Shown here in pieces: positions 41,814-64,000 of a stretch of 64,000 nt of DNA. The notes beneath the pieces were generated by a model. That model saw nothing but the letters and a program-made list of their open reading frames with translations, ran no database searches and had not been told where the DNA came from. Location of the stretch: positions 4,216,001 to 4,280,000 of the forward strand of contig NC_089429.1 in NCBI RefSeq assembly GCF_026210795.1, given 5' to 3'. Numbering within the stretch: position 1 is the first letter of the stretch; every line of letters begins with the position of its first letter. This stretch comes from Rhizophagus irregularis (lineage: Eukaryota). Both the position numbers and the translations under genes were made by a program.

Positions 41814-42289
41814 CTCACACTCTGTTGTAAGTTACAATCAACTGGCATTTTGTACAACATCTCCATCATCCTCAATAATAAGTTTTGATCCACATACTGC
41901 TTTAATTGAATTCCTCATTAGAATTTTATACGTATTGTTAGAAATTTTTTTACCACAAGAATCGGCGCTGTATTGAAAAACTTCATATTCCGGAGTTGCA
42001 AAATGTATTTCTTTTTACATGTACAAAAGCTTTAATAGATAATCGACCAAATTCAATGGTATTTAATGGAGTAGTTGCCACTGTTTCAACCAGTTGATTA
42101 AGGAGAATATTATCTTCCGTCAATTATCATCGTATCTACAGCTTCAGATAATAATTCAGTTGAATAATTACTGTATCTTTGTAATTCTCCTCTAAATATT
42201 TTACCGGTTTTTTTTATGACGAAAATTTAAAGCCTCAATAATTGAGAATAATCCGCAGCAATAAATTTGTACTATATTATCTTTAGTTA

Positions 42290-42640
42290 GGGGATGGCCA
42301 GAAATGACGTAATTTAAATTTTAGGATTTTTGCCCCCCGCCTCGAACTTGTGATTCCACTCCACATGTTTCGTCACAGGGTATTCAGAAAACATTGGTTC
42401 CACTTAGAATTTCCACGATGGATCCATGTGGATTTCTCTGCAGATTTTGACCGGCAAAAACTTCCTGATGAACTTTATTAACCTCCCTATGTCATCATTC
42501 ATTTTAGGAAATGTAAAATTAAAACACAATTCTGACTAGAATTATATTAACTACAAGTGTCTAAAAATGGAAGGTGTGTAACATCATCATGGTCTTAACC
42601 CCCTCCCCCTTAGGAAATGACGTCATTTCTGGCCATCCCC
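42290..42640. mobile_element. PIF/Harbinger (Tourist-like) MITE
   Basis: Perfect TIR GGGGATGGCCAGAAATGACG / CGTCATTTCTGGCCATCCCC; TTA TSD. Confidence 0.9.
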
Positions 42641-43808
42641 TTATCCTTTAATTGAACCCGTATAAGAATATTCTAATATCCATTACAGTAGACTCAACAG
42701 TTAGAAGAGAGATTTGATTTTCATATATAGTAATCCGTCAAATAATTCTGACCTTGCAGCCAAAATTGCTTTAGATGCATATATTTTTTTTTTATCTTTA
42801 CATAAAATTCCTATATCGCCATATTTGAGTTATTTATCAACAATATTAAGTCTTATTTTCCTCTCTTCATTTTTTTTTTTATGTCCAAGAAACTTATAAA
42901 TAGTTTAAATTTAGATAAGTAGAGTGTGTTGCATAACAAAGATCAAAATTTAGATCGGATAGCAAATTGTCGATATACGTAATATTTATAATTATTCCTT
43001 GGTTGTAACTTAATTTAATATAAGCAGATAACTTATGGATTTTACAAAATAATATGAATAATGATTCTCAACGTCTATGAAAGAAGAAGAATACTATGAA
43101 AATGAATATGAAGATGAATGGGCCGAGAAGACGAATTAGAAGCTTATGTTTCACTCGATCTAGACTCGAAATTTTTACGAAGGGAAGAGAAATTGCGCAC
43201 TCAACAGTTCAATTCAAGTTTATAGCATTATATTCTAGACTTCGAGTGAGTCAAGTATTGATCTAATATCAATGATATAATATTTAGCGTATTTTGACGG
43301 TATATTGATCATTTCGTGATTATTGTCATTAAAATGATTTTTTTTTATTAATAAATATTGGTTTTTAAGAAATTATAATAATAAAATATCTAAAAAAAAA
43401 AATTGTTATAAATTAAATGAATAAATTAATCGGGTAACGTTTAACCTGCCTTACTGCTAAATTGTACGTATAATTTCAAATATAACACTACGTTTGCTTA
43501 TTAACAATCATTAGTCTTATTCTAACGAATATCCTCTTGTCATTTCTAATCACAGTTATAATGATATTCAAAGATTATAAAGAGTTGTATCTATACATTA
43601 TAGCTATGTGTGCAATGAAGATATGATGCTTTTAACAACTGGAAGTTTAATTGAAATTCATACGGCACATATAAATAATTTCATTCTACGCTAAATACAA
43701 AATTTTTTACTAATGAATTTCTCGACTAAATTATATTATCATCATGACTTTAAATAATATCCAATTTTATTTACTCTCGCATGTATTATAGAGGGTATAT
43801 ATGTAGAT

Positions 43809-45224
43809 TTATGATTTTTGATGAGGTTGAATTCGAAAGCGACCAGGATAATGAAATGATACTACGGGATAAAGCTTTGATGGCAAATTATTCCATGTTG
43901 ATACTACCGGATATTTTGTACCATCTACTGTAAAAGCACAAGTTCTTTTATTCATATCTAGATGAACAGTGATTCTTGCACCATTTATAAATTCAGGACA
44001 ATAATCAAGTTGCCAATTCCCGAAATTACAACACCTACCATCACTACACAATACCCATCCATAAGACACCCAACTTTCACTTTCAAAATTTTCCAATGTA
44101 CATACTCCAATATGAAAATAAACGCTGACTTTCTCAATAATGACATCCCATTCAAAAATGTTTTCATTCTCTAATGCAAGTTTTGCTCTAACACTTTGAT
44201 AATTATAAACATTTGCTGATTTAGTACGTACAACTTTTCCATTATCCTCAATAATAAGGTTTGATCCACATGCTGATTCATCCCAAACATAATCGGATTC
44301 ATTAAATTTGTAAATTGACGTTGGAATTCCTCGAATATCATTTAAGTCTGAACTATTCGATTTTGCTATATATCGATAAACATTTAAAATTATTTTGGTT
44401 GGGATAATTTCTAATGGATCAATGAGATCAGCAAATATTTGTCTTTTAATTCGTCTGAAATCAATAAATTCAACCAAAGGTTCCAATTCTTTAGTAACTT
44501 CTGATATTCGGTTATTGTCAATAAATTTAATTTCTATTTGGATCGAGTTATTCATTTGTTCTAAGGTAGGTAATCTCTCCATAAGAATTTTGTATGCACT
44601 ATTAGAGACTTGTTTTGCTGCCAGAATAACGGCATATCGAAAAACTTCATATTCTGGCGTTGCAAAGGGCGTTTCTTTATTATATGTATAAGATAGGAGA
44701 TGTTGAAGTGCCTTGATTGATAATCGACCAAACTCAACAGTATTTAGTGGAATAGTTGCTACAGATTCGACTAATAAATTTAAGAGAATATTATCTTCCG
44801 ATAGCGGAATTGTATTCACTACTTTAGATAATAATTCTGGTGAATAATTTTTTGCATAATTAGCACTTTTAATAGTTTCCATAATAAATTTCTGAAGGTC
44901 TAGTAATTGAAAATAGTCTGCAGCATAAAAAGCTTCGACTATATTTTCTTTATTTAAAGATTCTACTTTAATTGATCCCGAATAAATGTATTCTAATATA
45001 ATTTCCATTTCGGAAGAATTAATATTCGGGAAAGAAAAATGATTTTCATAACTTTCTTTCCTCCCATTATAAAGAAATTTATCAAATACTTCGGACCTTG
45101 CTGCTAAGATTGCTCTGCAACCGTGTAGTATTTGTTTATCCTTACATAAAATTTTTATATCACTATATTTTGGATTATTTATTAATAATCTCAAATCTTG
45201 TTCTAATGAATATCCTTTCGTCAT
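43809..45224 (-). CDS. BTB/POZ-SPRY protein, copy 4
   Basis: 471-aa intronless ORF colinear with the paralogs. Confidence 0.9.
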   Translation of the reverse strand: MTKGYSLEQDLRLLINNPKYSDIKILCKDKQILHGCRAILAARSEVFDKFLYNGRKESYENHFSFPNINSSEMEIILEYIYSGSIKVESLNKENIVEAFYAADYFQLLDLQKFIMETIKSANYAKNYSPELLSKVVNTIPLSEDNILLNLLVESVATIPLNTVEFGRLSIKALQHLLSYTYNKETPFATPEYEVFRYAVILAAKQVSNSAYKILMERLPTLEQMNNSIQIEIKFIDNNRISEVTKELEPLVEFIDFRRIKRQIFADLIDPLEIIPTKIILNVYRYIAKSNSSDLNDIRGIPTSIYKFNESDYVWDESACGSNLIIEDNGKVVRTKSANVYNYQSVRAKLALENENIFEWDVIIEKVSVYFHIGVCTLENFESESWVSYGWVLCSDGRCCNFGNWQLDYCPEFINGARITVHLDMNKRTCAFTVDGTKYPVVSTWNNLPSKLYPVVSFHYPGRFRIQPHQKS

Positions 45225-46090
45225 TATTGGATTTTTTTTTGTTGAGAAATTGAGAAAGAAGTTTTGTTATTCATCCCATTTCAGACCAAATTTATCGTTA
45301 TAGTAAGTGTAGATTTTTTACAAATTTAGATTCGTACCAAATTCAATTTGGAAAATCGAGTCACGTGTGCATGATATAACAATTTTTTTTACGATTAAAT
45401 AAAAAAATTATTACAAATTTTAAATCTTTTTTCGTTAACAACGCAATTTGCATGAAAATTAAAACATTTTTCATTTATCTGTTACATATTTATGTATAAT
45501 TGTTAATTAACATCTTTTTTCTACGTGTAGTTATAGTTTAAAATCTCCATACGGTCGCATCTCTAGTTGAGAATTACAAAATCGTGTAAATTTTGAATTA
45601 TCATTATAAAGTGAAAATTATGAAATGTTTGGATTAGTAATAACTTCAGAAAATAATACAAAATTAGAAGGAATTTATGTTAATGGCTTTATCCGATCGT
45701 AAGAAATATTGACATAACAAAATATTATATTTATGGGAAACAATGTTCTTAATTTATTGATATATCTATTCCATTAAATATTATTCATTTTTATTGATAA
45801 CCTTTCAATATCTTAAGCGCGTCAGACTGTCATAATTTATATCAATGTAGTAGAGCTAAATTACATAAGAAATAAAGATATTTTCTTAATTTCTTTATAC
45901 CGCTATTAACCAAAATATGTCCCTATAATTCTGGAACATGCTAATTTAAAAAATTGATCAATGTGTTACATTCAGTTATCGATCATGAACAAATGTTCAC
46001 GAAAAAAAATGGAAATAAAATTTTATAATATTACAATATAACATTGTCCGTTTATTAAATAAAAAAAAACATGTAATTGTCTAAATTTAT

Positions 46091-46426
46091 TGCACCCCGC
46101 GGTTTTATATGATCACGTGAAATTTATTTATACAGTTAAAGTAGGATCGGCATCGTGCATGAATTAGAAACCGCGCCCAGAAAACGGAGCTGCTTTTTTT
46201 TTTTTAACAATGAACAATTCTATAAAATAAAAACGTGTACAACATGTGCACAATGAGTCATCGTGTCACGATAACCATAAATCACATTATTTTGGTAATA
46301 TACAATAAATTTGCAGCTCCGTTTTCTGGGAGCGGTTTCTAATTCATGCACGATGCCGATCCTACTTTAACTGTATAAATAAATTTCACGTGATCATATA
46401 AAACCGCCCCAGAATCAGGGGGTGCA
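46091..46426. mobile_element. Foldback MITE with ~100-bp near-perfect inverted arms
   Basis: 46091-46193 is the reverse complement of 46313-46426, apart from one substitution and a short insertion near the right end. Confidence 0.8.
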
Positions 46427-46436
46427 AAAAAAAAAC

Positions 46437-46991
46437 ATAGTGATATAGAAATATTATGTGAAGATGAAAAGAAACTATATGGTTGTAGAGCAATTTTGGC
46501 TGCAAGGTCCGAAGTATTTGACAGATTACTCTATAATGGGATGAAAGAAAGTTATGAAAACCAAATTTCTTTCCAAAAATTAATTCCTCCGGGATGGAAA
46601 TTATATTGGAATATATTATACGGGATCAATTAAAGAATAATCTTTAACTAAAGAAAATATAGTTGAAGCTTTTAATGCTGAGTATTCAAGATTTTATCGT
46701 GAAAACTCTTAAAAATACTCTTAAAAAAAAATCACAAAAAATTTTTCACCAGAATTATTATCTAAAATTGCAGAAATAATGTCATTAACAGAAGATAATG
46801 TTCTTCTTAACTTATTGATTGAAACGGTGGCAATTATTCCATTGAATACTATTGAATTTGGTCGATTATCTATTGTAGGCCTCAAACATCTTTTATCTTA
46901 TACACAAGAAAAAGAAAAATTTTTTGTGACCCCAAAATTTAAAGTTTTTCGATATAGTGCAATTTTAGCAGCAAAACAAGTTTCTAATGAT
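46437..46991 (+). pseudogene. Truncated BTB/POZ(-SPRY) pseudogene
   Basis: SDIEILCEDEKKLYGCRAILAARSEVFD... to ...AAKQVSND; frameshift near 46572, TAA near 46638, internal deletion; 5' end abuts the foldback element; SPRY part absent. Confidence 0.85.
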
Positions 46992-47837
46992 ACACCCATG
47001 CATAGCAACATGCTGCTCCATAAATAATGCATAAAAAAACAAGTTTTACTTTACTCACTTTTGATATTGCTTCAGGCAAATTAGATGTTAAGATGAATAA
47101 AAGAGCTGATTAAACGAAAATAAGAGAGATGAAAGGGAAAGAAAAAGCAATCAAGAGAGGGAAGAGAAGAAAGAAAAGGAAGGATGAGAGACAACAAGAG
47201 TAGGAGAGAAAGAGTGAGGGAAGAAACAGAAAAGTGTAAGAGGAAAAAGGGTTTAAAAAAGAAGGCGGGAGAGAAGGAGAGAAAGGAGAGGAAACTGAAA
47301 AAAGAGTAATATAAGATTATTAAATATCTAATAAGAAAAATGATATGTCAAATACTTTTCGCGCAATGCGCAACAAAAAGTCACATGCAATTTGCGTAAA
47401 AACAAATCCAATTTGCGCTTCTAATACTGTATCTGCAAATCTAAGTTTTTAAATATAAAATTTTAAATTATAAGTTGCGCTATGCTCAAACTAGAATTAT
47501 GTATAATTTGCAGAAATTAAAAAGTAAGTTGCGCTCCGCAAATTCTGCAAATAGATTTCATACACTGAGTAAGATTGTATTGGAATAGTGGGAGTCTGTC
47601 TTTTTTCGATGTCTGCGCGGAAAATTCCATAAAGTGCGTATCTCCAAATTTTTTTTTATTTTAAGTTTGATAATTAAACTAGAAAATCATTAATTTCTCT
47701 TCTTTTCAATTTTTATACACGTGTTACTATCGCCTTATAAAGTAAATTATTGTTTAGTTCCTTGCATTAAATATTAATTTATGTTACTAAAATAGCATGC
47801 TGTGTCGCTGCGAAGCAAAGATTACCACAAGAATGAT

Positions 47838-48040
47838 TCAGATAAATAATTCTATAAAAATTGGAATTATAGCTTCACACCAAAGTTTATTAACTAACAA
47901 ACAAGAGAATAGAGTTTTTTTACACTTTTTATTGTTATTCATAAGCCCAATCAAATGATTTATACCAGATAGCGTCGTTGTATTTGAATATAATGAAAGT
48001 AGATTTATGAAAAGTTCATTTAAACCTTGAAAAATATGAT
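47838..48040 (-). pseudogene. F-box N-terminal fragment
   Basis: KKTLFSCLLVNKLWCEAIIPI matches the F-box motif of the genes at 27791-34088. Confidence 0.5.
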
Positions 48041-48064
48041 AAAAGAATATCATTATGAAATTGA

Positions 48065-48107
48065 ATATCAATGATTTTCACGGCGCAGCCGTGAAAATCA
48101 TTGATAT
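48065..48107. repeat. Perfect 20-bp hairpin with GCA loop
   Basis: ATATCAATGATTTTCACGGC-GCA-GCCGTGAAAATCATTGATAT. Confidence 0.9.
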
Positions 48108-48294
48108 CCACAGTTCCCCGTGAAATAACTATCACTTAATAGTTTGAATATGAACGTTTAAAGACTCTTTTTAGGTAATCGGAGATCCATGTGACAGTAA
48201 ATTTTTTCACCGTACACATGGTACTACAGCGTACAACCCAATTTATTATAAATCAAATTTAATCATTCACATAAACTCGTGTTAAAAAAAAGAA

Positions 48295-49677
48295 ATGACG
48301 AGAGGATATTCATTAGAACAAGATTTAAGTTTGTTAGTAAATAATACCAAATATAGTGATATAGAAATTTTATGTGAAGATGGAAAGAAACTATATGGTT
48401 GTAGAGCAATTTTGGCTGCAAGATCCGAATTATTTGACAGTTTACTTTACAATGGAATGAAAGAAAGTTTTGAAAATAAAATTTCTTTTCCAAAGATTAA
48501 TTCCTCTGGAATGAAAATTATATTGGAATATATTTATACAGGATTAATTAAAAAAGAATCTTTAAATAAAAATAATATAATTGAAGCATTTTATGCTGCA
48601 GATTTTTTTCAATTAACTGATCTTCAAGAAAATATTGTAAGAGTTGTTAATAATACACTGGAATCAGAAAATTATTCACCGGAATTATTATCTAATATTG
48701 TAGAAATAATGCCATTTATAGAAGATAATATTCTTCAAAATTTATTGGTTGAAAAAGTAGCAACTATTCCTTTAAATACAATTGAATTTGATCGATTATC
48801 TATCGCCGGACTTCAATGTCTTTTATCATTTACACATAAAAAAGCAAAGTCCTTTGCAACTCCTGAATATGAAGTTTTTCGATATAGTGCTATTCTAGCA
48901 GCAAAACAAGTTTCTAATGATGCTTTTAAAACTCTTATGAAATGTTTACCAACTTTGGAACAAATAAAGAATTCAATCCAAGTAGAAAATGAACCTATTA
49001 CCGATCACTGTAAAGTTACTAAAGAATTAGAACCTTTAATTGATTTCATTGATTTTAATCAAATTAAAGGAAAAATTTTGACAGATATTATCGAACCATT
49101 AGGAATTATTCCAGCTAAGACAATATTAGATGCTTATCGACAAAAAGCAAGATCACATAATACGGATTTTAATGAAATTCGAGGAACACAGTTTTGGGAT
49201 GAGTTAGCATGCGGATCAAAACTTTTTATTGAAGAAAATGGAAAAGTTGTAAGTGCATCAAACGATTGTCATACACATCAAGGTGTTAGAGCTAAAATTT
49301 TAATTGATAGTAAAGGTATTTTTGAATGGGATTTTATAATTGAGAAAGCTTGTAAATGGTTTTGGGTTGGAGTATGTGCACCAGGAAGTTTTAATAATGA
49401 TGAACCTATTGGATGGGCATTGAGTTCTGAAGGTCGTTACTATAATTCTGGAAATTATTTAGAAGATTATTGTCCTTCATTGGGTGATGGCACGAGAATT
49501 ACTGTTCATTTAGATATGAATAAAAAAACTTGCGCTTTCACAGTCGATGGTACAAGATATCCCGAAGTATTAAATTGTAATAATAATTTACCATCAAAGT
49601 TTTATCCTGTAGCATCATTATGTTATCCTGGTCGTTTTCGAATTCAATCCCATCAAAAGTTAGATGTAATAATTTAA
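48295..49677 (+). CDS. BTB/POZ-SPRY protein, copy 6 (inverted orientation)
   Basis: 460-aa intronless ORF colinear with the paralogs. Confidence 0.9.
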   Translation: MTRGYSLEQDLSLLVNNTKYSDIEILCEDGKKLYGCRAILAARSELFDSLLYNGMKESFENKISFPKINSSGMKIILEYIYTGLIKKESLNKNNIIEAFYAADFFQLTDLQENIVRVVNNTLESENYSPELLSNIVEIMPFIEDNILQNLLVEKVATIPLNTIEFDRLSIAGLQCLLSFTHKKAKSFATPEYEVFRYSAILAAKQVSNDAFKTLMKCLPTLEQIKNSIQVENEPITDHCKVTKELEPLIDFIDFNQIKGKILTDIIEPLGIIPAKTILDAYRQKARSHNTDFNEIRGTQFWDELACGSKLFIEENGKVVSASNDCHTHQGVRAKILIDSKGIFEWDFIIEKACKWFWVGVCAPGSFNNDEPIGWALSSEGRYYNSGNYLEDYCPSLGDGTRITVHLDMNKKTCAFTVDGTRYPEVLNCNNNLPSKFYPVASLCYPGRFRIQSHQKLDVII

Positions 49678-50489
49678 AAAAAAAAAAAGATTGGGTTATT
49701 TGTTGTGACTAACCACAACTATCGGTTCAGTTTAAAAATAGCTACTTGTTTTAATACCAAAAACTTTATATGACATTATATTCGTTATATAATTAAACAA
49801 TTAAGGAATTGTGAAATATCCTTTATATATTAAATACATAATCTTAATTTTTCGTATATTATGCGACTTTGAATGAAGCAAACCATCAAGAGTAGGATTC
49901 TTATTAAATACATTCAAGCATAGATGTGACATATGTTCTAATACCAATTATACTAATGACAGAATTGGACTTTAAAGTGAAAAGACAATATAAAAATCTC
50001 TTACTTCTTCAGTTGTATAAAATTAGAAGAATGTAAAGGAACAAATATATTAATTGTTATGATTAATTTTAATTTGTATCTGAATAAATCTTTAAAAATT
50101 TAAATATCGTATACAATATGTTCTTTGACGCAACTTTTTTTTATTTATCTTAGTATTTCTACAATCTTTCACGTAAATACTGAGAACGAAAGCGAAAATA
50201 TTATCTACAAAAAGATTACAATTGTGGCTAATATGAAAATAGAATCTAGTAATTTTTCAAAATTTATTCTTCGCCTTTTTCAATAATTTTTTAAACAAAG
50301 TTTGATTACTTATGAACTGTTAGATAAAAAAGTGGTCTTCGCTCTAAAGTTATCCTACACTCCAAGCTGCTATAATAAGAATTATTTAGAAATTACGAAT
50401 TGGAAAAAATCAAAGAATGAGAAACGTTGATAGAAGAACATACCGATCTCTTTTTTTTTCAGATGGTCCGGAATTGAAAGTTCCACCGT

Positions 50490-51135
50490 CAGTAGTTCCG
50501 TTTATAATAATGTTATTCCCTCCACTCTTGAGTATCGGTTGATAAATGTCGGCCGGTTTATGCTCCCTCAAAGAAAAATTTAGAAAGGTCTTGATTCCAT
50601 CCCGCCAGGCAGGATCGAGACTGAACATCAGATAAGCTCGATGGGTCATCTGTGTTCTGGCGGTAGTTCCGCTTATATTAACGTTATTCCCTCCATTTGT
50701 GAGTATCGGTTGATAAATGTCGGCCGGTTTATGCTCCCTCAAAGAAAAATTTAGAAAGTTACTATTATTCTTAAATATCATATTCATTTATTTCGCTTGA
50801 ATCCATCCCGCCAGGCAGGATCGAGACTGAACATCAGACAAGCTCGATGGGTCATCTATGTTCACGCCTCGAAGCTTAACATCAGACAAGCTCGATGGGT
50901 CATCTGTGTTCTGGAGGGGCTAGTGTCAGATCGGCTTGAAAGTATTGAATACAGATTTTCGCTTGATTCCATCCCGCCAGGCAGGATCGAGACTAAACAT
51001 CAGACAAGCTCGATGGGTCATCTGTGTCCACGGTTGCCTCGAAACTTAACATCAGACAAGCTCGATGGGTCACCTGTGTTCTGGCGGGTTGGCTTGAAAG
51101 ACTTGAACACAGACAAGCTCGAAGGGTCCTCATGC
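50490..51135. repeat. GC-rich modular direct-repeat region
   Basis: Core AACATCAGACAAGCTCGATGGGTCATCTGTGTT at 50624, 50830, 50878, 50996, 51048 and 51106 (variant); CCATCCCGCCAGGCAGGATCGAGACT x3; ~95-bp duplication 50492-50588 / 50663-50759. Confidence 0.85.
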
Positions 51136-52170
51136 CACTTATTCTTCTTTTTTACGCAGAAAGTAATTAAGTAAATACTTGCCTGCCTGTATTTGTTGCA
51201 CTTTTTTCTGTCTTCGACCTTCGACCTTCTTCTGTATTGGCGATATTCTCAAGGAAGGAAAGGTAGCAATTTACCTTTCGTCTAAATGGTTCGACATTGT
51301 ACTCACCAAGGAGTCCAGTAATACACCATTCGTTCAAAATATTCATGTATCTGTTTTTGACAGGAGGCCAAAGGGTCATTGGTGGGTCAAAAAAAAATGC
51401 AATAATCCGTATTAAACTTTCTTACCACTTTAGTACTAGATGTGAACGTTTTGTTTTGTGTTGTCTTTGCCTTTACCTTTAGGCGATGCCGACGCAAAGT
51501 GTGAAGTGACGGGAGACTTAAAAATTTACGTGGTCGAGCCGCCGGAGAATTTAAATTTACCATATTCTAACTTACTCTATAAAAGAGGTAACAATATTCA
51601 TTTTCTCAAGGTCGCGTCATTTTTACAGTTATTGCAAAAAAAACGTCATTTTTACTCCGAAGTCATACACAGTCATACCGGCGCACATGATCATAATTGA
51701 TTGCCGGCCAAGTTATAATTTTAACACATACGGGAATGTCGATCATTTCCATTTTTTTGCGAAAGCCAAAAAAAAACTAAATTCTGGCCAGAATTATAAA
51801 TTATGCCGATCAGTCATGCGTGTGAAGCTTCGAAACGAAAATAAATTGGGTGGTCCATTCTTTTGCAATTAGCTGTAAGGATTTAAGATGTCCAAATAAT
51901 TACTTTACACTAAATATTATTCTTAAAAATAAATAAATAAGGTAGGATATAATAATAATTTATTGGATACATTATATAACAAACTTTTAAAATTACAAAT
52001 TTTGCAAATATTACAACTTACTTTACAGCATAAACTTTAATAATACATTTGTACAATAATCGACTTCACTATTTCTATATCACTATATATACTATATTTA
52101 TAAGCCAAAAAAATAGACTTAATGATATGCCAATCTATTACACTGTACTCCATATACTATAAATCAAAAA

Positions 52171-53571
52171 TCAAACTTTTCTATAAGATTGAATCCGAAA
52201 GCGACCAGGATATATTAATCCTGCTACTGGATAAAGCTTTGATGGTAAATTATTCCACGTAGATACTTCAGGATACCTTATACCATTGACTGTAAAAGCG
52301 CAAGTTCTTTTATTCATATCTAAATGAACAGTAATTCTCGTTCCTTCTCCAAACGGAAGACAATAACGAATTTCTTTACGAGAATTCCAACATAAACCAT
52401 TAGAACCTAGTACCCATCCAGTAGTTTGATACCCTGCAAAGGCTAGGCAATTAAAATTTTCTGGCGCACAAACTCCAATCCAAGCATATTCACACAATTT
52501 TTCAATAATAACATCCCATTCAAAAATACCTTGATTTTCTAATGTTAAGTTAGCTTTAACACATGTTTGGAGATTACAATTACTTTTCGCACTAACAAGT
52601 TTTCCATTTTCTTCAATAAAAAGGCTTGAATCACATGACTCATCCCAAGTGTAATTAGACTCATTAATGTGTACTCCTCGAATTCCGTTTAAATCTGTCT
52701 TGTGTGATCTTGCTTTTTGTCGATAAGCATCTAGTATTATTTTAGGCGAGACTATTTCTAATGGTTCAATAATATCAGTCAAAATGTTTCCTTTAATTTG
52801 ATTAAAATCAATGTATTTAACTAAAGGTTCCAATTCTTTAGTAATTTTTTGATTATCAGTAATAAATTTATTTTCTGTTTGGAATAAATTCTCCACCCGC
52901 TCCAATGTTGGTAACCGCTCCATAATAGTTATAAAAGCATCATTAGAAACTTGTTTTGCTGCTAAAATAGCACTATATCGAAAAACTTCGTATTCTGGAG
53001 TTACAAAGGGTTTTTCTTTTTCATGTGTATATGATAAAAGATATTGAAGTCCTGCAATAGATAATCGACTAAATTCAATAGTATTTAATGGAATAATTGC
53101 TACCATTTCAATCAATAAATCAAGAAGTGCATTATCTTCCGCTAATGGCATCATTCCCGCAATTTTAGATAATAATTCCGGAAAATAATTTTCTGTTTCG
53201 AAAGTATTATTAACAATTTTTACAATATATTTTTGAAGATCTGTTATTTGAAGATAATCTGCAGCGTAAAACACTTCAATTATATTATCTTCTGTTAAAG
53301 TTCTTTCTTCAATTGATCCCGTATAAATAAATTCTAATACAATCTCCATTCCAGAAGAGCTAATTTTTGGAAAAGAAATTCGATTTTCATAGGTTTCTTT
53401 CATCCCATTATAAAGTAATTTGTCAAACATTTCAGACCTCGCGGCCAAAATTGCTCTACAACCATATAGTTTCTTTTCATCTTCGCATAAAATTTCTATA
53501 TCACTATACTTTGGGTTATTTATTAAAAATCTTAAATCTTGTTCTAATGGACATCCACAACCTCTCGTCAT
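52171..53571 (-). CDS. BTB/POZ-SPRY protein, copy 7
   Basis: Likely ATG at 53571 (MTRGCGCPLEQDL), matching paralog starts; intronless. Confidence 0.9.
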   Translation of the reverse strand: MTRGCGCPLEQDLRFLINNPKYSDIEILCEDEKKLYGCRAILAARSEMFDKLLYNGMKETYENRISFPKISSSGMEIVLEFIYTGSIEERTLTEDNIIEVFYAADYLQITDLQKYIVKIVNNTFETENYFPELLSKIAGMMPLAEDNALLDLLIEMVAIIPLNTIEFSRLSIAGLQYLLSYTHEKEKPFVTPEYEVFRYSAILAAKQVSNDAFITIMERLPTLERVENLFQTENKFITDNQKITKELEPLVKYIDFNQIKGNILTDIIEPLEIVSPKIILDAYRQKARSHKTDLNGIRGVHINESNYTWDESCDSSLFIEENGKLVSAKSNCNLQTCVKANLTLENQGIFEWDVIIEKLCEYAWIGVCAPENFNCLAFAGYQTTGWVLGSNGLCWNSRKEIRYCLPFGEGTRITVHLDMNKRTCAFTVNGIRYPEVSTWNNLPSKLYPVAGLIYPGRFRIQSYRKV

Positions 53572-55844
53572 TTCTGGAGGAAAAAAAAAAAAGTTTTTTT
53601 TTATTGAAGATTCCAATTCGAGGAATCGGTATTTATATAGTACACTGTAGTACCGTATGTACGACGGCGATCTTTAATCAATATTCCCTGTATATCTTCC
53701 AACTTTTTTTGGCCAGGATCATAATAGAATAATAGAACCAAACATGCTTAATTTCGAAATTTCATTAATTAATAAATATTACACAGTATTTTGGTTATAA
53801 AATTTATTTCTATGGTAAGTTATAAGTTATATAAGTTATTTATTTAATTTTATTATATTTGTAATAAAATATTTACATATAATTTAAGCTAGCTAAATTC
53901 ATATTCATTTTAAGGTTGGCAATCGTTTCGTAAGAACATCAAATTTTAAATGCAAACTTGTTTTACAACTAGAGTAGAGGTTACGAAGTAGTATTAATAA
54001 AAAATTATACGAATCTGTAAAGATATGCCCTTTCTTCTAAAACAAACTATTCTGTCTTCATAAAACTTCGCAAATCATAACATGATCGACAGAATTTCAA
54101 CAATATATATTGCAAGAAAAAAAAATCGAGACTGCTTATCAATTATTTACTGTCTATATCTATAATACCACATCTACAGTACTAACATTTTCTTGATAAC
54201 AACCTGCCTTATTACTAAAAAAAAAAGTCAAAAAGAATTTTCACTTGCCAATCCGGAATTTTTAAACTCCCATTTTATCATAACAAATATGCGCTTATTC
54301 TATTTTCTTATGTTTCTTGCATATGTGTTATGCATTTTATGCCATATAAATAAGTTTTAATAATTTTATTGCATACTAATCAGCATATTTGACACGCTTA
54401 CAATGTAAACTAATAAATAGTTTACATGCAATTTTTTTTTTAGCTTATTCAGGTTTTTTTGCATATATGACGTGTTTTAAATAAGGTTTTGTTTTTGTGT
54501 ATCTATTATTAAACGCTAAATTTCACCCCCGATTTTTTTAATACTGTATGCCGATCTTGGATCAATGATTAATTAATTGTTAAGAGCGTTACATTTTTAA
54601 ACCAAGTAAAAAATAAAAATTTTCCAAAAGCAAAGATTTAAAATGAGAAAAAAAATTGAAAATAAATATCATTTAATACGTATAGCTACCATATAGGTCG
54701 GGATTATGTCTCATTGGGTTTTAAGTTTTCGGGATTTCGTAGTGGATGAGTGTAATGAAGCCAAATGAGTCTACATATTACAAACTTGGTATATTGATAC
54801 GGATATTTTAAGTGGGGGATACTCTCAAAGGGGGTATCTTAGGCAGTGCGGTACGGTAATTGGTGGAGAATAGGTAATGATCATCAGGCTATTATAATAG
54901 TACAATCTACAGTATAAAGAATCAGTGAAGAATCGGGTTTGTGATTCTCCACTGACATACCATCATTCGATCTGTGATATAGTTGTAATGGATATGCCTA
55001 TTTTGGAGATATTTCCAAGGAGAAATGACCCAAGAAAAGAAATGTGTGAAATGCTATTGGAAAGTACCATGAATAGGAGGTACCACCGCCGCTAGCACTA
55101 TGAATGACTATTGTAGGAAATGATGCCCAAGAATCGTCATATTTGATGGCTATTATAAATCAAATTTAAAATTTCACATCTTAAATCCTTCTAGTACTTT
55201 CAGGATGGTAAACCAAATATTTTGTTTTAGACCCGGGGTATTTTAGGCAGTGCGGTACGGTAATGCCTAGATTCTGGACAACATCGGTAAACTGATACTT
55301 TTGAAGGATCGAATTTCCGATTATATACCTAAATTAGAATATCAGCGATCTGAAATTCACATATACAGTATTTCCGATGCCACAACGATTTTACATTAAT
55401 TTTTATATGTACAGTATTTCATTATTATATATTGAGGTATTGAAATTTTGAATAGTTGTTTGTTGGAATCGAACCAACTGGAACAAAATGTTCCAAACCA
55501 TTAACAACATGTACTATGCTCCAAAGCTTCCATGCCAGTATATTTTGAAAAATCACTTTTCCTGAAAAATCAAAAGAGATGTTACTAAAAAATCTTTGAT
55601 CCTACATTCCCATCTTAAAGATGAGTAAAGTTTTGAAATCATAAACTTAACAGCAAGGATTGCACTAACGTACATTTTGTACCACCTTATAACTATAAAA
55701 AAGGCAAAAATTTTTTTAAGGTTACACATTAATTTGACCAGAATTAAGATAATTTCGCCCAGCAAAATTTCTTAGCTATCAGTACTATAGTTGTATCAGT
55801 AATTGTTTTTAAAATTTCGTATTCCGAAATTACGTTACGTAAAT

Positions 55845-56058
55845 ATAATTACGGATTACTTAATTAGTTACGGATTACTTAATTAATTACGGGTTACTTA
55901 ATTAATTACGGGTCACTTAATTAATTACGGGTCACTTAATTAATTACGGGTCACTTAATTAATTACGGGTCACTTAATTAATTACGGGTCACTTAATTAA
56001 TTACGGGTTACTTAATTAATTACGGGTTACTTAATTAATTACGGGTTAATTAATTACG
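55845..56058. repeat. 19-bp minisatellite, about 11 copies
   Basis: (TTAATTAATTACGGGTYAC)n in the hAT subterminal region. Confidence 0.95.
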
Positions 56059-56295
56059 AGGTATTGATTATAAAGTAATAAAAGTATTCAAAACATTTTT
56101 TTAATTTTTATAAATAATTAAAATGTTCATAAAATATTTACACCTGTATAACTATATATTTATTAATTATTACTTAAAAAAGTTATAATATTATGATAAA
56201 TACTGTAAAATTCATAGTTATAACAAAATTATATTAAACTGAACTTTATTTTTTATTAAAGAAAAAATCATTTATGATATTACAAAAATACTAAT

Positions 56296-58870
56296 TTAAT
56301 TTTGATCAAATTCTTCTTGTAATAATGCATTTATATCAAAATCCTTTTCTCCATGATCAACTGGTTGTTTTCAATACGTACTTCTACAACTTGTACTTCA
56401 AGAAGTTGACGTAACTCTTCAGATGCCAAATTTAAGTATTCATCAATTCCATTATTATTATTATTTATATCGTTTTCATCTTCAACTTCACTTACATCTG
56501 AATCCTCATCTCCAAATTCTTCTTCTACTTCAATAGTATCATCATCAGCAAGATGTTCAGATAAATTTTTTTCAATTTCCTCATAAAATTTTTCTTCTTG
56601 CAAATCTTGGTATACATATTTTAATTCTGCTTTTGCATTGGTAATATAATAGGCATGTAATTTTGCCATATTTTGTATACGATCAATTCCTAATCTTTAA
56701 AATTATTAAATTATTAATTATTAGTTATATGGAATTTATATAATTCAAAATTATGATTTGCTACCTGGTTCTTCGTTTATTCATCATCCATCCTAATACT
56801 GAAAAAATTCGTTCACAACCAGCATTATGCGGCCTTATTGAAAAAATTTTAAAAGCTAAATCTTGAATGTAATTTTTTTCATCATTTTCTTCATATGTCA
56901 TACTCCACCAACTTTGAACTGTATATATTTCATCAATAAATTGATGATCATATGGAGCTTTTCTATTTCTGTAATTTGAAAACTGACCGATCAAAATCTG
57001 ACTAAAATTTTTTCCTCCACCCATTTTGAGCCATATTTCTCGAATGCCATATTCAATTACTTTGCGAAAAGTGCTTGTTTTCATTCCTTCACTTTAATAT
57101 AAATAAAATATAAATAGTTAAAAAAAGTAGATTAGTTTATTATTAAACCATTTTTTAAAAAAAATCAATTCATTAAAAAAAAAAAATTTAATTGCCACGA
57201 TATTTTGGATGTAATATAAATGCAAGCACATATAATTCAATATCAAATTGCTTCCAACGCTTATTAAAAATTTCAATGCATTCTTTATGAAATGATACTT
57301 GACGTGTTTCAGGTAAATCTTTAATAGCAGCATAAAGCTTAATTATTTCAATAAAACAATCGGCCAAGGTGGTAGATTTGAATTCAAGACATTTTAATGC
57401 TTTTTTAATTGGTTCAATAATTGATACCAATTCTTCTAAATCAACATAAAAATGCCGATTAGAAATAATTTTTTTAATATCATTGTTTAACGTATCAGCA
57501 TCTTGTACTGCAATCTGTTCATTATAATACATTAAAATTAGTAATAATTAATAAATAATAAAAATAAATAAATTAATTTATTTGATAAAGTAAAATTAGT
57601 ACTTAATACTTACATTTTTTAAAATGGTTTCACAAGATAAAATAGAATTTGCACAATCAAACGCTGTAGACTAGCGTGTTTTCACATATGATTTCAACCC
57701 TCCGCCTTTTACCATATTTTCCAATATTTCTGTACGCAAAGTCTCTCCAGCTTTGTGAGAAGTTTTAAAGAATCTGACAATCTTCATGCATTTTTTTAAA
57801 AGATCTTCTGCGAAAGGCAATTTACATATATCAGTGGTAATTAAATTAATTTGATGATCAATGCAACGAATTGGCATTATATTTTCATATTTTTCATTAA
57901 CGAGCTTTTTTGCTTTAACCATAGAAGATGCATTGTCAAATACAACCGCAGAAAATTTCCCTGCGCCCACTGATTCAATTACTTCAATTATTTTTTTGGC
58001 AATATATTGGCTGGTATGCGATTCTTTAGAAAGATTTTGAATTGAATGAATAAATTCTTTTCCGCTTTTAGTGAAAATGATGAATGCGTAGAATGATTGT
58101 CCTACTGGTGACGTCCAACTATCTAACCCTTTATTATTATATAAAATTAAATATTAAATATTAAGTAATTTTTTTAATATTATTTAAATAATAATTTATA
58201 TATTAAATATAAATACCCAACGTCAAACAAGTTTCATTTTCAAGTATCCCATTGATTTTTATTTGGATATGTGATATTTCCAAATTAAGCATATCTGCAG
58301 ACAATTGTTGCCGTAAAGGAAGTGAATATGTCGGGCATAATATCTTAATAAAATCTACGAAGAATGGATGTTGTACTAAATGAAATGGTATTCCACAACA
58401 AACAAATAATTTTATAAGAGCCTGATTGGCCATTTGTACTTTTGAATTAGCTATTTTAAGTGAATCATAATGTTCGTCAATTCGTTGTTGATTATCATGA
58501 TTGCTCTTTATTTTTTTTTTGAGGATCTTTCATTATCATTGATTGAATCATTTGAATGACCCAAATTTCCTCGATTTCGAATAATGTTCATGTATTTTTC
58601 TTTGATTTGATAATCAACTTTAATACACCGAAGACCAATATGAGTCTCAAGTTCATCCGTTTTTGCATTAGCCTTCTTTTCCCAACCACATACTTTACAC
58701 TTAGCACCACAATGACCTTGAACTCGTGCGCCAATTTCTATAAAAAAGGTCCAAACATCATTTTTCGGTCTTCCTGGCTTCCTCTTTTTAGATATCTCTG
58801 CATCATTTGTATCATCTTTATCATCAGTATTTGGCGCTAAAAGTTCTGCTGCTGCTTGTTCAGCTGTCAT
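56296..58870 (-). pseudogene. BED-finger hAT transposase, inactivated
   Basis: BED (VWTFF..CKVC..LETH...C), LDSWT, DNAS, CIDH..NL, KTR* (TAG at 57671 where W is expected), PHNAGCERIFS dimerisation motif; frameshift in the A-run near 58515; four short introns. Confidence 0.85.
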
Positions 58871-59144
58871 TTTACCTTTTAAAATGTTTTAAACGGTTAT
58901 TCACAAAATTTATTCTTTGTATTCTTTGTTCATGAAATATGTATTTATGGTAAGACGAATTTTTATTGGTGTTAATAAATTTCTTAATTTAGATATTAAT
59001 ATTTAACACCATTTTCTAGTGTAATCAGGTGATTATCGATCAATTATAAAAAAAAACCACACGAAAACAACCGAAACAATACCAAAACTTATTAAAATAA
59101 ATAAGAAATAATCTTATACAATAATAATTAAGTTTTATTTAATT

Positions 59145-60290
59145 TAAGTACCCTTTATTTGCTCAAATATCCTGAAATACCGATCGCTTACAAAAAAAGA
59201 AAACCAAAATAATTGGTAATTATTTCATTAGCCGGATAATACCGATGCTTTGATATTTTATTCACAAACGCTCAATTCAGTTTGCGATTGGTCAAAACAG
59301 GATGGTTCAATACAATACATTGATGTTTTCTAAAAAGTCGGAATGATGGGATGGGAAGATTATTTGAAATTGTTGACAGCTTTATAAAGGAAGGAGCGAA
59401 GTTTGGAAAAGAAATAATAATTCAAATTAAGTCCAAGGATCTATACCGGTAGTGAAAGTATTCTATAATTTATCAAATATATTGATCTCAAATAAATGAA
59501 TATTTAATTTGGATCTCAGTTATAATATCTTGAAAATCCCTTACCCATCCAAATATCGCGAATACCAGTTGTCTACAAAAAACATGAAATAATTAGTAAT
59601 TATTTCGTTAATAAAGAAATGAATCAAAAAAAATGAACCTTACTTACTCAAATATCCCGAATACCGATCGTCTATAAAGATGAAAAAAAAGAAACAATTA
59701 GTATTAAATTGTTTCGTTAAAGAATATTCAAAGAAATCCCCTCATCAATTACCATGAAATCAAGTATCCCGAAGTACCGATTGCCTACAAAAAAAAATAA
59801 AATAAAATAAACGAAACAATTAGTAATCGTTTTGTTAACAAAAGAAATATAAATTATTTTTAAAAAAAAACCCTCACCTAGTCAAGTATCCCGAAATATT
59901 GATCGTCTACAAAAAAGAAAATAAATGAAACAATTAATAATCATTTCGTTAACAAAGAATTCTTTAAAAAGAACTCACATCCATTCAAATATCCTTGCCC
60001 AAAGACTCGAAAATTCAGCCGTCTAAAAAAGAAATATCAGAACTTAGTAAATGTTCTGTTAAAATAAACAACTAAGGTAAAATAATAAATACCCTTACCA
60101 AAATTTCCACGCGCCTGTTCAGACCATCTAAAAAATGGAGGAAACGAATGTTAGTGTTCTTCGCTAAAAGAAACAAATTAAATTAAAAAAAAAATACTTA
60201 CAAAGGAGTTTGAAGAAATCAACTAAAAGAAAAATGAAACGTTTTATTAACGTTTCGTTAAAAATTATAAAAAATTCAAAGTTTTACCTT
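59145..60290 (-). repeat. Tandem intron/micro-exon array upstream of the hAT transposase
   Basis: Minus-strand introns at about 59573-59643, 59672-59752, 59785-59877, 59907-59978, 60023-60098, 60128-60201 and 60222-60287; exon consensus ACGATCGGTATTTCGGGATAYTTGA; a decayed unit near 59150-59230. Confidence 0.7.
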
Positions 60291-60834
60291 CGAAAACCTA
60301 TATAACCGGCCTGAAACTTGTATAACAAAATTTTTGAAATTTAAAACAGGTTCCGGGCTTGATAATATTGAAAGCTGTGACAATGGAGATTCGGAAATTT
60401 GTTGATAGGAAGCATTTATAGCAAAATCAGTTGATTTTCAGACGCAGTATTGTGGTTATCAGTGCTTCCGATTATCGATCTTGTAGTATCATGCAAGTTG
60501 ACTATCGGTTTACCTGTGTGAGTAAAACTACTATGCAAAATTCGTAATTAATTACATATTATAATCAAGTATTTTCCCGAAAAAAAAATCCGAATTTTTT
60601 GGAATTCTACACTTCTGAAGATAAAAAATTCGCTACTGAGAATTACCCTTTTAGGCTGATCTGTGGCTCGTACTTAAACTATCATAATCATGTGTTTTTC
60701 AGAAAGAATATTCCGAAGGTTTACCCTTATATTAACTATATCTGGTATATTATCATAGTTTACTTCTGGACGCTATTTTTAAATTTCAAACGGAAAGAAA
60801 AAAATATATTTTCAGCATTAATTTCATATAAACT

Positions 60835-61390
60835 AGAGTTTATGAGCAATTATAATGTGTGTACTTGGTTTCTGATATTTTTCGTGGACTTATAACTTGT
60901 GTATGACCTTTTATTTTAATTTATTTGATCTTAAAACAGGCCTTTTTATGGGCAATATTATGGTCTTTCGCGTTTAATGAGCAATTATAATTCATGTATA
61001 ACGGCCTTTTATTTTGATTTTTTAATGGGTAATTTTATTCATATTCTTATTTGATTTTAATACTTTTTCATGGACAATTTTAAATTTATGCGTTAGTGAT
61101 GGTTTTTCCATTTGATCTCTAATATTTTTCGTAGGAATTTTTAATTATGGTGATGGTCTGATCTCTAATGGGCAATTATAATTCATATATAGTGGTCTTC
61201 CTATTTGATCTTTAATATTTTTATGAGTAATTTTGATTTATGTATTGTGGCTTTCATATTTTGATCTTTAATACCTCACTTTCGTGAATTTAATTTATGT
61301 ATGATGGTCTTATTATTATTTGATCTTTAATATTTTTTTTGTGGGCGTGCGATAGTCTTTTCATTTAATTATTCACAGATTTTTAATTTA
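60835..61390. repeat. Degenerate ~60-bp tandem repeat inside the MULE
   Basis: Recurrent ATGGGCAATTATAATT..GTAT..GGTCTT..ATTTGATCTTTAATA motifs. Confidence 0.55.
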
Positions 61391-61645
61391 TATGTAATAG
61401 ATGCAATTTTTTTTGGAAAATATCATCTATTATATAAAAATATGAACAATTTAATATTTTACGTAGTTGAAAATAAAATGTTTATTTTGTATCAATAATA
61501 TCAAAATATACTATTCACCAACCTGATACATATATTATTTATAGTCTAAATTTTTATATTTTTCCTTTCTTTCCAATTCTTTATTAATCCAATTTTTAAT
61601 CGCTGTTAATGTTTTATCACATTTAGGTATATCAATATTATTGTA

Positions 61646-62935
61646 CAGTCACGTCCGAAAGTGACGCCCGATTTAAAATTAATGCCAAAAATGGCAAAAC
61701 TTTATTGATTTTCATTAAAATTCACATAAAAAATAATTACTAAAAATGGTTAATAATGTGTTGGCCCTCCCCTTGCTTCTAGTACTGCATTTATTCTTTG
61801 TGGCATTGAAGCAACAACCTCTTCAAAAATGGAGCAATCCAAATTTTCCCATTCTTCACTTAGTGCAACTTTAAGTTCATCCACAGTTCTTGGAAAGACT
61901 TTACAACTCTGGATATTGTCCTTTAACTGCTTCCAGATGTTTTCTATTGGATTTAGATCGGGAGAATTTGCCGGCCAATCAATAACCACAATTTTATTCT
62001 TCTTCAACCAATCCTTGGTTATTTTCGCGGTATGTATGGGTGCATTATCCTGTTGAAAAATTGCAGCCCTTCCTGTTAACTCATGAACTGTATGCTGAAA
62101 TGGATACAGATATGAATTTAGGATTCTAATGTAAGTATTTGAATTGATTTTTTCATTTCCTTCTTTATTTTCATCACAAAAAATTAATGGCCCTTTTATC
62201 CCTCCTGCAAAACATCCCCAAACCATGACTGATTTTCGACCACTTTTAAAGATAGATGTCAAGCATTCAGGTGTTAAACCTTTTCCCCTGTGTGTCTCCA
62301 AACTCTTATTTGTCGTGACTGCTTACCAATCTCAACACTTGATTCATCTGAGAAAATAACTTGTGCCCAATCATAAGCTGTTTTTTCTTTATATTTCTCA
62401 CACCAACTAATACGAGCTAATGCATGCTTTTCTGAGATAAAGGGTTTTTTTGCAGCAACATGGGAATAAATTCCAACACTATGTAATGCTCTTTTAGCAG
62501 TTGTAAGGCTGCAATTTAAATCTAATGTATTAATGACTTCATGTAAAGGTTCGCGTCGATCTTGTGTAACTTTGTTTATGAGTGCATTTTTCTCATTATT
62601 ATTGAGAGCAGGTGGACGCCCCGATCTAGGTAAATTTTCAGTTTTTCCTGTCTTCTTGTATCTGTCAATAATTCTTCTTATTGTGGTGGGGTCACGACCC
62701 ATTTTTCTTGCTATTTGTGCAGGGTTAAAATTCTCCATATATGCTAGTATTTTTCCTTTATCTTGAGAAGTTAACTCAGTTCTATGTGACATTATTTTTT
62801 TAACTTTGCAACGCGTTTATTAGGTTATGAAATTGTGAGAAAAACATTTAAAAATAAAAAAAGGGGGTATAAATAATGTAAATTTTGTGTATCGTAACAC
62901 TGTACAAAATCGGGCGTCACTTTCGGACCCGACTG
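61646..62935 (-). mobile_element. Tc1/mariner (DD34E) transposon, full length, 1290 bp
   Basis: TIR CAGTCACGTCCGAAAGTGACGCCCGATTT / AAATCGGGCGTCACTTTCGGACCCGACTG; TA TSD. Confidence 0.95.
61750..62792 (-). pseudogene. Tc1 transposase with one frameshift
   Basis: HTH-GRP N-terminus, VIFSDES, FQQDNAPIH, WPANSPDLNPIEN (34 residues between D and E); frame break near 62280. Confidence 0.9.
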
Positions 62936-64000
62936 TACATACGAGATACTATTGATTGATTAAAACTAATATCATCAAGTGAAATATCCCTTATTTCTTG
63001 AGCTATCCTATATTGACTTGGAACATCAAGGGTTTTCCTATAATCTAAAATTATTCTAAATTCTTTATCTTTGATTCTTTGCTTGTAAAAACTCGTGTTC
63101 TTTTAGGTTTCCATTGTTCATTTAATTTATTTAAGCTTTATTTGATTTATAAACAATGGATAAAATCGTTAAATTTGTTATTTTAACATGCTTCAAAATA
63201 TTAAAAAAGTTAATTTGTCATTTCATTTCGTCATACCTCCCTAAAATTCCCAAAATATCATTATCTTTTCTCACGATCTATCTTTTGAGCGATTAAATTA
63301 TCAAATTACTTGCATTAATAATAGTTTAACAAAAAAAATTCAATTGAAAAGAAAATTATTATTTTTTAATCGTTCTCTTATTACATATAATATCAGATTC
63401 TTATAAAATAACTGACAGTGATCTGCATCTTTCTCGTTATTATATAATATGCAGTATTTTTTATTGTCTAACACGTTATAGTTAAAAAGATAATTTTAGG
63501 GGTAAATTTTTTGAAGTGTAGAATTCTGAAGAATTCGGAATATTCTTTCGGAAAAACACATGATTATGGTTTAAGCACAAGCCACAGATCAGCCTAAAAG
63601 GGTAATTCTCGGTGGCGAATTTTTTTATCTTCGGAAGTGTAGAATTCCGAAAAATTCAGATTTTTTTTTCGGGAAAATACTTGATTATTTACATATTTCC
63701 GTAATTATTTACGCATTTCCGTAATTAATTACGTATTTCGTAAAATTGGACGAATATTCCGAAATATTTACAGCAATTAAGAAATACGTAATTCCTTATT
63801 ACGAAATTAATTTCGGCTACTATAATCGCCTATGCTAATTAAGTGATAATTTCAAATCTTATTCGTTACCATTGGTAACAGTTTTTTTGTCACGTGATAA
63901 TTTCGAATGGACTTGATTTTTAGCTGACTCACGTAGAAATTTCTTCTCCTTATTGTGTTGCTTTATTTCACTACTAACGATTTTCTTATGAGCCTCAAGT

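Follow-up and report, generated by a model that had tools for sequence, protein, structure and literature searches.

The locus considered here lies in Rhizophagus irregularis (NCBI RefSeq assembly GCF_026210795.1, contig NC_089429.1), within a stretch of 64,000 nucleotides which, taken at its full length, is described below as the window. All coordinates are those of the window. Present at the locus are a DNA transposon, two further elements nested within that transposon, and, just upstream of the transposase gene, an array of short introns separated by very short exons. The transposon and its larger parts are:

55786..63824, minus strand: hAT-like DNA transposon, a broken copy, with its left end at 63824, its right end at 55786, and subterminal repeats at both ends
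56331..58870, minus strand: transposase gene with four introns, ATG at 58870
60561..63688, no strand assigned: nested Mutator-like element (classed by its anatomy), with long terminal inverted repeats (I1, I2, I7) and a 9-bp target duplication
61646..62935, minus strand: Tc1/mariner element nested within the Mutator-like element, with DDE_3, HTH_Tnp_Tc3_2, inverted repeat I9, and TA flanks

The outer element displays subterminal repeats along with short terminal inverted repeats, as would a hAT element. Its left end (63824) matches the left end of a metagenome relative, L005, and is 3 nt shorter; its right end mirrors that same L005 end. Comparison of its flanks, on the other hand, revealed no matching 8-bp target site duplication, and it is for this reason that the element is filed here as ‘hAT-like’. 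The copy is broken in the sense that its left arm holds two nested insertions: the Mutator-like element, which sits in the left subterminal repeats upstream of the array, and, inside of that, the Tc1/mariner element, whose transposase (61646..62935) is frameshifted. With the nested insertions removed, the order becomes left end, array, short 5' region, and then transposase. Inside the Mutator-like element, at 60840-61340, there are as well degenerate repeats of 55-115 nt lacking an ORF.

The transposase gene of the hAT-like element carries DUF659 (Pfam, E=1.7e-21, above the cut-off) along with a below-cut-off match to Dimer_Tnp_hAT (E=0.0042), and a full-length relative, P0008, carries both DUF659 and the hAT dimerisation domain. 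The first exon has no Pfam match; by eye it displays a W, C, C, H, C spacing, making it a candidate BED zinc finger. Homologues of the middle exon are R. irregularis proteins which are 96-97% identical. Two breaks interrupt the window's own copy, namely a frameshift near 58511 and a stop near 57672. The possibility of a U12-type intron ahead of the transposase start was set aside, its 5' motif being mismatched.

The array and its presumptive flanking signals, all on the minus strand and given in the direction of transcription, consist of the following:

60470..60480, minus strand: promoter-like 11-mer GATCGATAATC, some 190 nt ahead of the first donor (putative role)
60420-60414, minus strand: TATA-like word, as read from the sequence
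60288..60420, minus strand: opening exon of the array RNA, with an approximate 5' end; joint 60222>60288 in run X20
60223..60287, minus strand: intron 1, 65 nt, with branch-site hairpin; skipped in one of three RNA-like runs (X20), CT..AC on the plus strand
60128..60201, minus strand: intron 2, 74 nt, following a 21-nt exon (60222-60202); skipped in 3/3 RNA-like runs
60023..60098, minus strand: intron 3, 76 nt, following a 29-nt exon; 76-nt skip in 3/3 RNA-like runs
59907..59978, minus strand: intron 4, 72 nt, following a 44-nt exon; skipped in 3/3 RNA-like runs, CT..AC
59785..59877, minus strand: intron 5, 93 nt, following a 29-nt exon; predicted from sequence, with no joint among those listed
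59672..59752, minus strand: intron 6, 81 nt, following a 32-nt exon; skipped in 3/3 RNA-like runs, CT..AC
59573..59647, minus strand: intron 7, 75 nt, following a 24-nt exon; skipped in 3/3 RNA-like runs
59463..59544, minus strand: intron 8, 82 nt, following a 28-nt exon; skipped in 3/3 RNA-like runs, CT..AC, with a repeat-type donor and an acceptor supplied by an insert
58966..59462, minus strand: last exon, true 3' end approximate, contigs stopping at 59196, 59182, and 58966
59031..59041, minus strand: the 11-mer again, 160 nt ahead of the ATG of the transposase

The array thus occupies 59463-60287, with eight introns of 65-93 nt and seven inner exons of 21-44 nt. Seven of these introns, running from 60287 to 59573 on what is also the transposase strand, are repeats, and they lie 0.7-1.4 kb 5' of the transposase ATG (58870) with their acceptors spaced 95, 105, 116, 122, 113, and 99 nt apart. 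The original prediction, i.e., of at least seven units of about 105 nt found on the transposase strand at this distance from the ATG, is in this respect borne out. The range which it assigned to the array, 59145..60290, stands only in part, however: the repeat introns are real, but 59145-59545 is not continuous array, as unrelated sequence of about 300 nt interrupts the eighth unit. The acceptor used by intron 8 (59544-59463) lies inside of that insert, with the old acceptor surviving as a relic at about 59230-59150, and the last exon consists in part of about 230 nt of insert together with the relic eighth unit (59230-59150). Read on the plus strand, the insert returned four matches from among 1.84 billion proteins, all of them to repetitive proteins with 14-32 residues aligned, and these were rejected as chance.

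The array introns are about 20% GC and display the motif TTAACGAAA...ACTAA...poly-T AG. These signals are retained in all seven repeat introns despite divergence, mean column identity being 59% over 20 units. Exons 5-8, along with the relic unit, are similar to one another. Tandem Repeats Finder does not pick out the array in its entirety. The 11-mer GATCGATAATC is found exactly three times in the 64 kb (60470-60480, 59031-59041, and 11602-11612), a count made after the motif had already been noticed; the last of these copies adjoins the 5' end of a second array, at 9.6-11.4 kb, and the 59031-59041 copy is likely part of the transposase's own promoter. A Sigma-70 promoter scan, a model inapplicable here, gave results equal to those of shuffles. 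The word AATAAA, which is the poly(A) signal (AAUAAA) described for R. irregularis (10.1101/2022.10.19.511543), occurs within the last exon at 59159, 59139, and 58967, and is a common word in DNA as AT-rich as this.

The concern, raised along with the original prediction, that the array might never be spliced is refuted by the skipping of seven of its eight introns, at or no more than 2 nt from their GT..AG ends, in RNA-like contigs from two studies. The runs in question are assembled contigs, with their ‘RNA’ label a guess, and they carry no information on start, end, strand, or level. Of 24 runs listed, 20, from eight studies, contain the stretch or part of it, with none of these recorded as RNA, and four of the six guessed to be RNA were compared. 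X18 and X19 represent one study and X20 another, with X15 serving as a DNA-like control. Introns 2, 3, 4, 6, 7, and 8 are skipped in all of X18, X19, and X20, and intron 1 in X20 alone. Exact CT..AC ends on the plus strand are seen for five of the seven joints, with the joints of introns 2 and 3 listed as 2 nt off because the RNA carries variant letters there. Intron 7 makes use of an alternative donor as well, 4 nt downstream, which gives a 71-nt form in X20. Intron 5 contains a poly-T tract which the alignment tool skipped as a repeat, and it has no joint among the 15 of 17 that were listed. In X15 there are no array joints, its contigs instead running unchanged through the introns.

The RNA-like runs which skip the array introns also skip introns belonging to the transposase itself, which supports these runs indeed being RNA. 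Six of the X20 joints share a single contig depth (714.7), as if found on one contig. Joint depths are about 110-1240 (36 for the alternative donor) versus 2.5-27 for transposase contigs, with contig depth being a quantity that cannot rank genes. Unspliced pieces of the array also occur in X18, X19, and X20. Between the RNA-like contigs and the window there is a difference of about 1-3%; these contigs mix variants of more than one sibling copy, and those of the transposase derive from siblings that lack the frameshift and stop. The array is confirmed, that is, as real and spliced, and it is sibling copies of the array which are expressed, the evidence concerning those siblings rather than this very locus.

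What the array RNA might encode is a separate issue. The inner exons, at 21, 29, 44, 29, 32, 24, and 28 nt, keep no phase, only two of the seven being multiples of 3, and the longest ATG frame of the spliced product (>200 nt) is, in the window's copy, 24 codons. The array RNA is, as judged from these frames, non-coding. Public automatic gene models nonetheless treat the array exons as coding, and do so in three incompatible ways. P0015, at 70 aa, is the sole stand-alone gene model made from array exons; it is a one-member cluster, no relatives of it were found, and its atlas scores are under 0.9. P0002 and P0012 instead fuse array exons to a truncated transposase, skipping the real transposase start and using different exon sets, as automatic chimeras do. 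All three models invent protein from array exons, which serves as a warning to annotators, and some of the orphan genes counted in these fungi may owe their existence to such arrays.

The repeat introns are not simply similar in sequence. Each of the seven forms a stem of 6-9 bp that encloses or adjoins its branch-like motif, and swapping of stem arms among these introns raises folding energies from a native -5.5 to -2.8 kcal/mol (p=0.007, 5040 permutations), with the units being hand-picked and the broken eighth unit omitted. With three arrays permuted within arrays the result is p=0.0003; separately, the 9.6-11.4 kb array gives p=0.03, with three of its eight units in the test not folding, and a cluster at 5.1 kb gives p=0.25 (four units). 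The arm-swap test needs no alignment, the stem register shifting between units, and it is because of that shifting that RNAalifold finds no consensus pair among the repeat introns. Mean folding z is -1.44 in the seven array introns versus +0.25 in nine transposase introns, with the cut misplaced by 2-3 nt at the acceptor in two of these nine controls and with some of the 17 windows taken from the second array not being true acceptors; z is below -1.5 in just two of the seven array introns.

Two branch-site candidates exist per intron, one being the motif in the loop, 20-35 nt from the AG, and the other an upstream TTAAC, at 35-50 nt. The hairpin's probable role is to promote use of the branch site, whether by displaying the motif in the loop or by drawing the upstream TTAAC nearer to the acceptor. 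Co-varying arms can also arise without selection, via template-switch repair of near-palindromes. The loop additionally resembles the nonamer of a rolling-circle origin; that reading was rejected, since the loop corresponds to the branch-site consensus and there is no Rep gene nearby. The co-varying branch-site hairpin is, in its own right, a small and testable splicing feature.

Arrays of this kind are not limited to the transposon. At 9600-11420 on the minus strand there is the second array, of about 13-15 units, with 66% identity over 251 columns to units 1-3 of the array described here. A profile of the seven introns finds seven matches within it, of 7.5-16.1 bits, five of which score above the best seen among 20 block-shuffled windows (7.6 bits). 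Exon comparisons between the two arrays reached p<0.05, uncorrected, in only one of eight cases, and these exons are not clearly related. That the two differ in exon consensus while possessing similar introns, as originally predicted, holds on both counts. What is conserved between the arrays, more specifically, is the 3' half of the intron, but not the exons. Around the second array no flanking inverted-repeat pair, no transposase, and no hAT match were found, so that nothing there bears out the original placement of the two arrays in different transposon superfamilies; that such arrays are shared between transposon families accordingly is no more than a possibility. Over the 64-kb window, profile matches above the shuffle level are found solely in clusters without coding frames, with none in coding genes. 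The intron pattern has no matches in viral contigs, and four isolated, single matches in prokaryote genomes were taken as chance.

Various other features of the window can be described alongside these. A third cluster, at 5100-5520 on the plus strand, has four intron-like units with the same hairpin type, including two units with a 9-bp stem and a loop of TACT or GACT. More intron-like units, lying between short, non-coding-looking exons, are seen at 7260-7460 and at 8330-8780 (both plus strand), with the branch motif of the 7290-7450 units seemingly inside of a longer stem. At 9586-9602, the 3' end of the second array, there is a word of some 15 nt, GATCTGTGGCTTGTG, which recurs at 63580-63595 and 60655-60670, which are in the Mutator-like terminal repeats, though possibly by chance. 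At 13400-14330 (plus strand) there is what by eye is left of the 3' part of a further hAT-like transposase, together with subterminal repeats, which went unmatched by the two hAT proteins used as queries. The fragmented long ORFs at 838-4282 (plus strand) have no Pfam match and are CpG depleted (0.53), and probably are another transposon. Lastly, 36760-53571 holds five related, intronless genes of 460-471 aa, BTB/POZ-like by eye, with relics between them.

Conservation of the intron rather than of the exon raises the issue of which of these is the product. If it were the introns, then the array would be a host gene that, much as with non-coding snoRNA hosts or with stable introns, releases several hairpin intron RNAs of 65-93 nt, with exons serving as spacers, and both the retention between arrays of the 3' intron half but not the exons and the co-variation of the hairpin arms would then make sense. 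Known guide RNAs, however, as one would look for in the introns of a snoRNA host, are absent, there being no Rfam matches at gathering score over the 64-kb window, though an unknown family is possible. The introns furthermore are only about 20% GC, the part shared between arrays coincides with splice signals, and a resemblance persists among exons 5-8 of the array. Introns as product consequently seems quite improbable.

Relatives of the transposon provide a view of the array's history. Seven metagenome loci (L001-L007) encode relatives of the transposase. Three of these (L001, L004, and L006) are cut too short upstream to be informative, and L003 and L007 are the same element, so that three distinct elements, i.e., L002, L005, and L003/L007, possess enough upstream DNA for comparison. 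In these the ATG follows about 220-420 nt after the left-end repeats, with neither array nor profile match in between, and over the gene their DNA is 78-79% identical to the window. Relatives at about 79% identity thus lack the array, which implies that the array was gained following the split from these elements. Upstream of the related hAT in L003 (1-3060) and L007 (1-2880) there directly lies, in the same orientation, a different hAT-like gene. Much closer copies exist as well, two of them in one public assembly on different scaffolds. The first matches the window transposase over the aligned exons, and the second is 95% identical, with a gene model that starts with array exons. This suggests, to the extent that automatic gene models can be relied upon, that the array has moved with the element at least once. 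Absence of the array from other copies of the element, which had been posed as a challenge to the original prediction, therefore is the case for three distinct, distant elements but not for the close ones, as represented by two gene models with 95%-identical transposases.

Such a history might nevertheless be that of a neutral passenger, that is, of a decayed, repeat-built gene or a self-expanding exon-intron minisatellite which the hAT happened to capture. An insertion has disrupted the last unit, the array is missing from relatives, an origin by tandem duplication requires no function, and the co-variation of hairpin arms may be mutational. A passenger would not, though, be expected to have kept its signals in all seven diverged repeat introns (59% mean column identity, 20 units) nor to persist in being spliced in two studies, and I view this explanation as having only a slim chance of being correct.

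If the array does function, then a crucial question is whether its RNA is the transposase's own 5' leader. As a leader it would contribute nine exons to the transposase mRNA, with splicing raising output and the upstream ATGs holding translation down. The array is, consistently, on the transposase strand; the X18 array contig runs to 58966, less than 100 nt from the ATG and into the ancestral transposase 5' region; P0002 and P0012 join array exons to transposase; and the X20 transposase contig has nine unaligned letters at its 5' end. A leader starting from about 60400, however, would be 912 nt long with eight upstream ATGs, versus a mean R. irregularis 5' UTR of 116 nt (10.1101/2022.10.19.511543). 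A second 11-mer, along with an ancestral short 5' region, is found before the ATG, with 59008-58976 aligning to the short 5' region of the array-less relatives L002 and L005. Relatives express the same transposase family from a 5' region of 300-400 nt that has no array. P0002 and P0012 look, as noted, like automatic chimeras, and neither an array-to-transposase joint nor a bridging contig is present among the 15 of 17 joints listed. Contigs of two studies stop within 14 nt of each other (59196 and 59182), at a point where X15 continues, which is a weak hint. Between array and transposase the listed contigs account in full for the binned depth. The intervals left uncovered by contigs, namely 58910-58965 (X18), 58878-58968 (X19), and 58950-59119 (X20), are holes that prove nothing. 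It is unlikely, in sum, that the array is a leader. Rather, it probably specifies a separate non-coding RNA, possibly with minor read-through, so that of the two roles originally offered it is the independent non-coding RNA module that fits better, with the leader running up against its eight upstream ATGs, the second 11-mer, and the array-less relatives.

Read-through might itself be the point, though, were the array RNA a built-in brake, with transcription from the distal promoter overrunning and thereby repressing a transposase promoter at about 59040. By analogy this would resemble the LUTI of yeast NDC80 (PMC5655139), from which the mechanism is known, as there too are found a distal same-strand transcript, upstream ATGs (eight here), and a coding gene with its own promoter. 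The X18 contig does cross the second 11-mer, and short upstream frames are many. A LUTI, however, holds the whole ORF that it represses (PMC5655139) and is not an intron array, two of the three runs stop about 150 nt short of the second 11-mer, the transposase itself is transcribed and spliced in those runs, and the intron repeats are left unexplained. A brake therefore has little probability of being what the array RNA is.

The separate non-coding RNA is better viewed as the product of a captured unit, that is, of a spliced, frame-less unit which grew in tandem, which makes its own RNA ending before the transposase, and which acts in cis. This overall scenario has about an even chance of being correct. 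The array would have grown by tandem duplication, from an intron type common to other arrays in the genome. A hAT subfamily likely picked up the array in its left arm, and the array would move with the hAT. Transcription would start from an array promoter near 60480-60400 and end at the AATAAA of 59159, 59139, or 58967, with the transposase being transcribed separately from a putative promoter near 59040. Acting in cis, the array RNA would let the element go on resembling a host gene that is active.

How it might do so is more of a guess, and one that is possible but doubtful: strong transcription combined with efficient splicing may spare the left arm much CpG methylation and keep it out of the RNAi pathway. 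This guess rests on CpG retention, on the lower methylation of expressed transposons, and on a splicing-RNAi link in Cryptococcus. Ratios of CpG observed to expected, which are descriptive, are 1.49 for the array versus 0.90 for the transposase, 0.60 for the Tc1 element, and 1.0 for the window; elsewhere they are 0.53-0.90 for coding parts of transposable elements and 0.77-1.13 for two BTB genes. This CpG retention points weakly to low methylation of the array. In R. irregularis, expressed transposable elements have lower mCG (PMC8647823), and in Cryptococcus poorly spliced transposon RNA triggers RNAi (PMC5851062). A well-spliced intron cassette is the predicted counter-move to RNAi that is triggered by poor splicing.

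Full-text searches of the literature, with subscription papers falling outside of these and with supplementary transposon libraries possibly holding the element, found no such arrays described in these fungi. By term look-up, in the text accessible, there likewise is no mention of such arrays in 10.1101/2022.10.19.511543, PMC8647823, PMC11952901, or PMC13465315 (Glomeromycota), the last of which describes introns within recombinase genes; in PMC11075540 the terms intron, exon, and splic are absent from the text accessible to the same look-up. The array thus apparently is undescribed in this fungal group, and can be viewed as a variant of a transposon-borne spliced lncRNA.

Among such lncRNAs the nearest likeness is to those of Blumeria hordei, which also are spliced non-coding RNAs found in transposons of a biotrophic fungus, with alternative splice sites, and for which a role in transposon control has been proposed (PMC10648671). 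The Blumeria lncRNAs, however, are mostly antisense, average 2.3 exons, with fewer than 1.9% having more than five, and have no tandem units described in the text available (PMC10648671). The array here is sense rather than antisense, its splice sites being on the transposase strand and upstream, and it possesses nine exons which are repeat-built. In Cryptococcus neoformans, the KDZ1 element likewise has non-coding RNAs within the ends of a DNA transposon, CNAG_12018 and CNAG_12019, the latter differing in being antisense over the transposase and in yielding small RNAs, with no repeat or intron structure described in the available text (PMC11343200). The lncRNA FIRRE shares non-coding exons which are repeated units (the exonic local repeat RRD), but is mammalian, with a large locus and a repeat that is largely confined to that locus, and which retains the RNA in the nucleus (PMC4820808). 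Here, instead, the units are about 108 nt and the conserved part is the intron, which is common to other loci.

Introners enter new gene positions one at a time and carry long terminal inverted repeats. The array introns by contrast are in tandem and come with related exons; none are in the window's coding genes, there are no single insertions at unrelated gene positions in the window, and their hairpins are of 6-9 bp, involving the branch region alone. Schistosoma micro-exon genes consist of runs of very short exons which keep frame and encode secreted peptides. Very short exons are seen with the array as well, but these keep no phase and supply no ORF. Introner-like elements and fungal (stw)introns are, like the array introns, families whose spliceosomal introns are nearly identical to one another and have internal symmetry (PMC8469720).

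What had been a DNA pattern has now become a splicing event, that is, a transposon that gives rise to an intron-dense RNA and no protein. As a more general possibility, and a long shot, arbuscular mycorrhizal fungi may possess portable splicing cassettes, each consisting of a promoter word, hairpin introns, and throw-away micro-exons, which transposons capture as a form of passport against CpG methylation and RNAi. If that is true, then some of the unclassified repeats of Rhizophagus, along with some of its orphan gene models, would be traceable to such cassettes.
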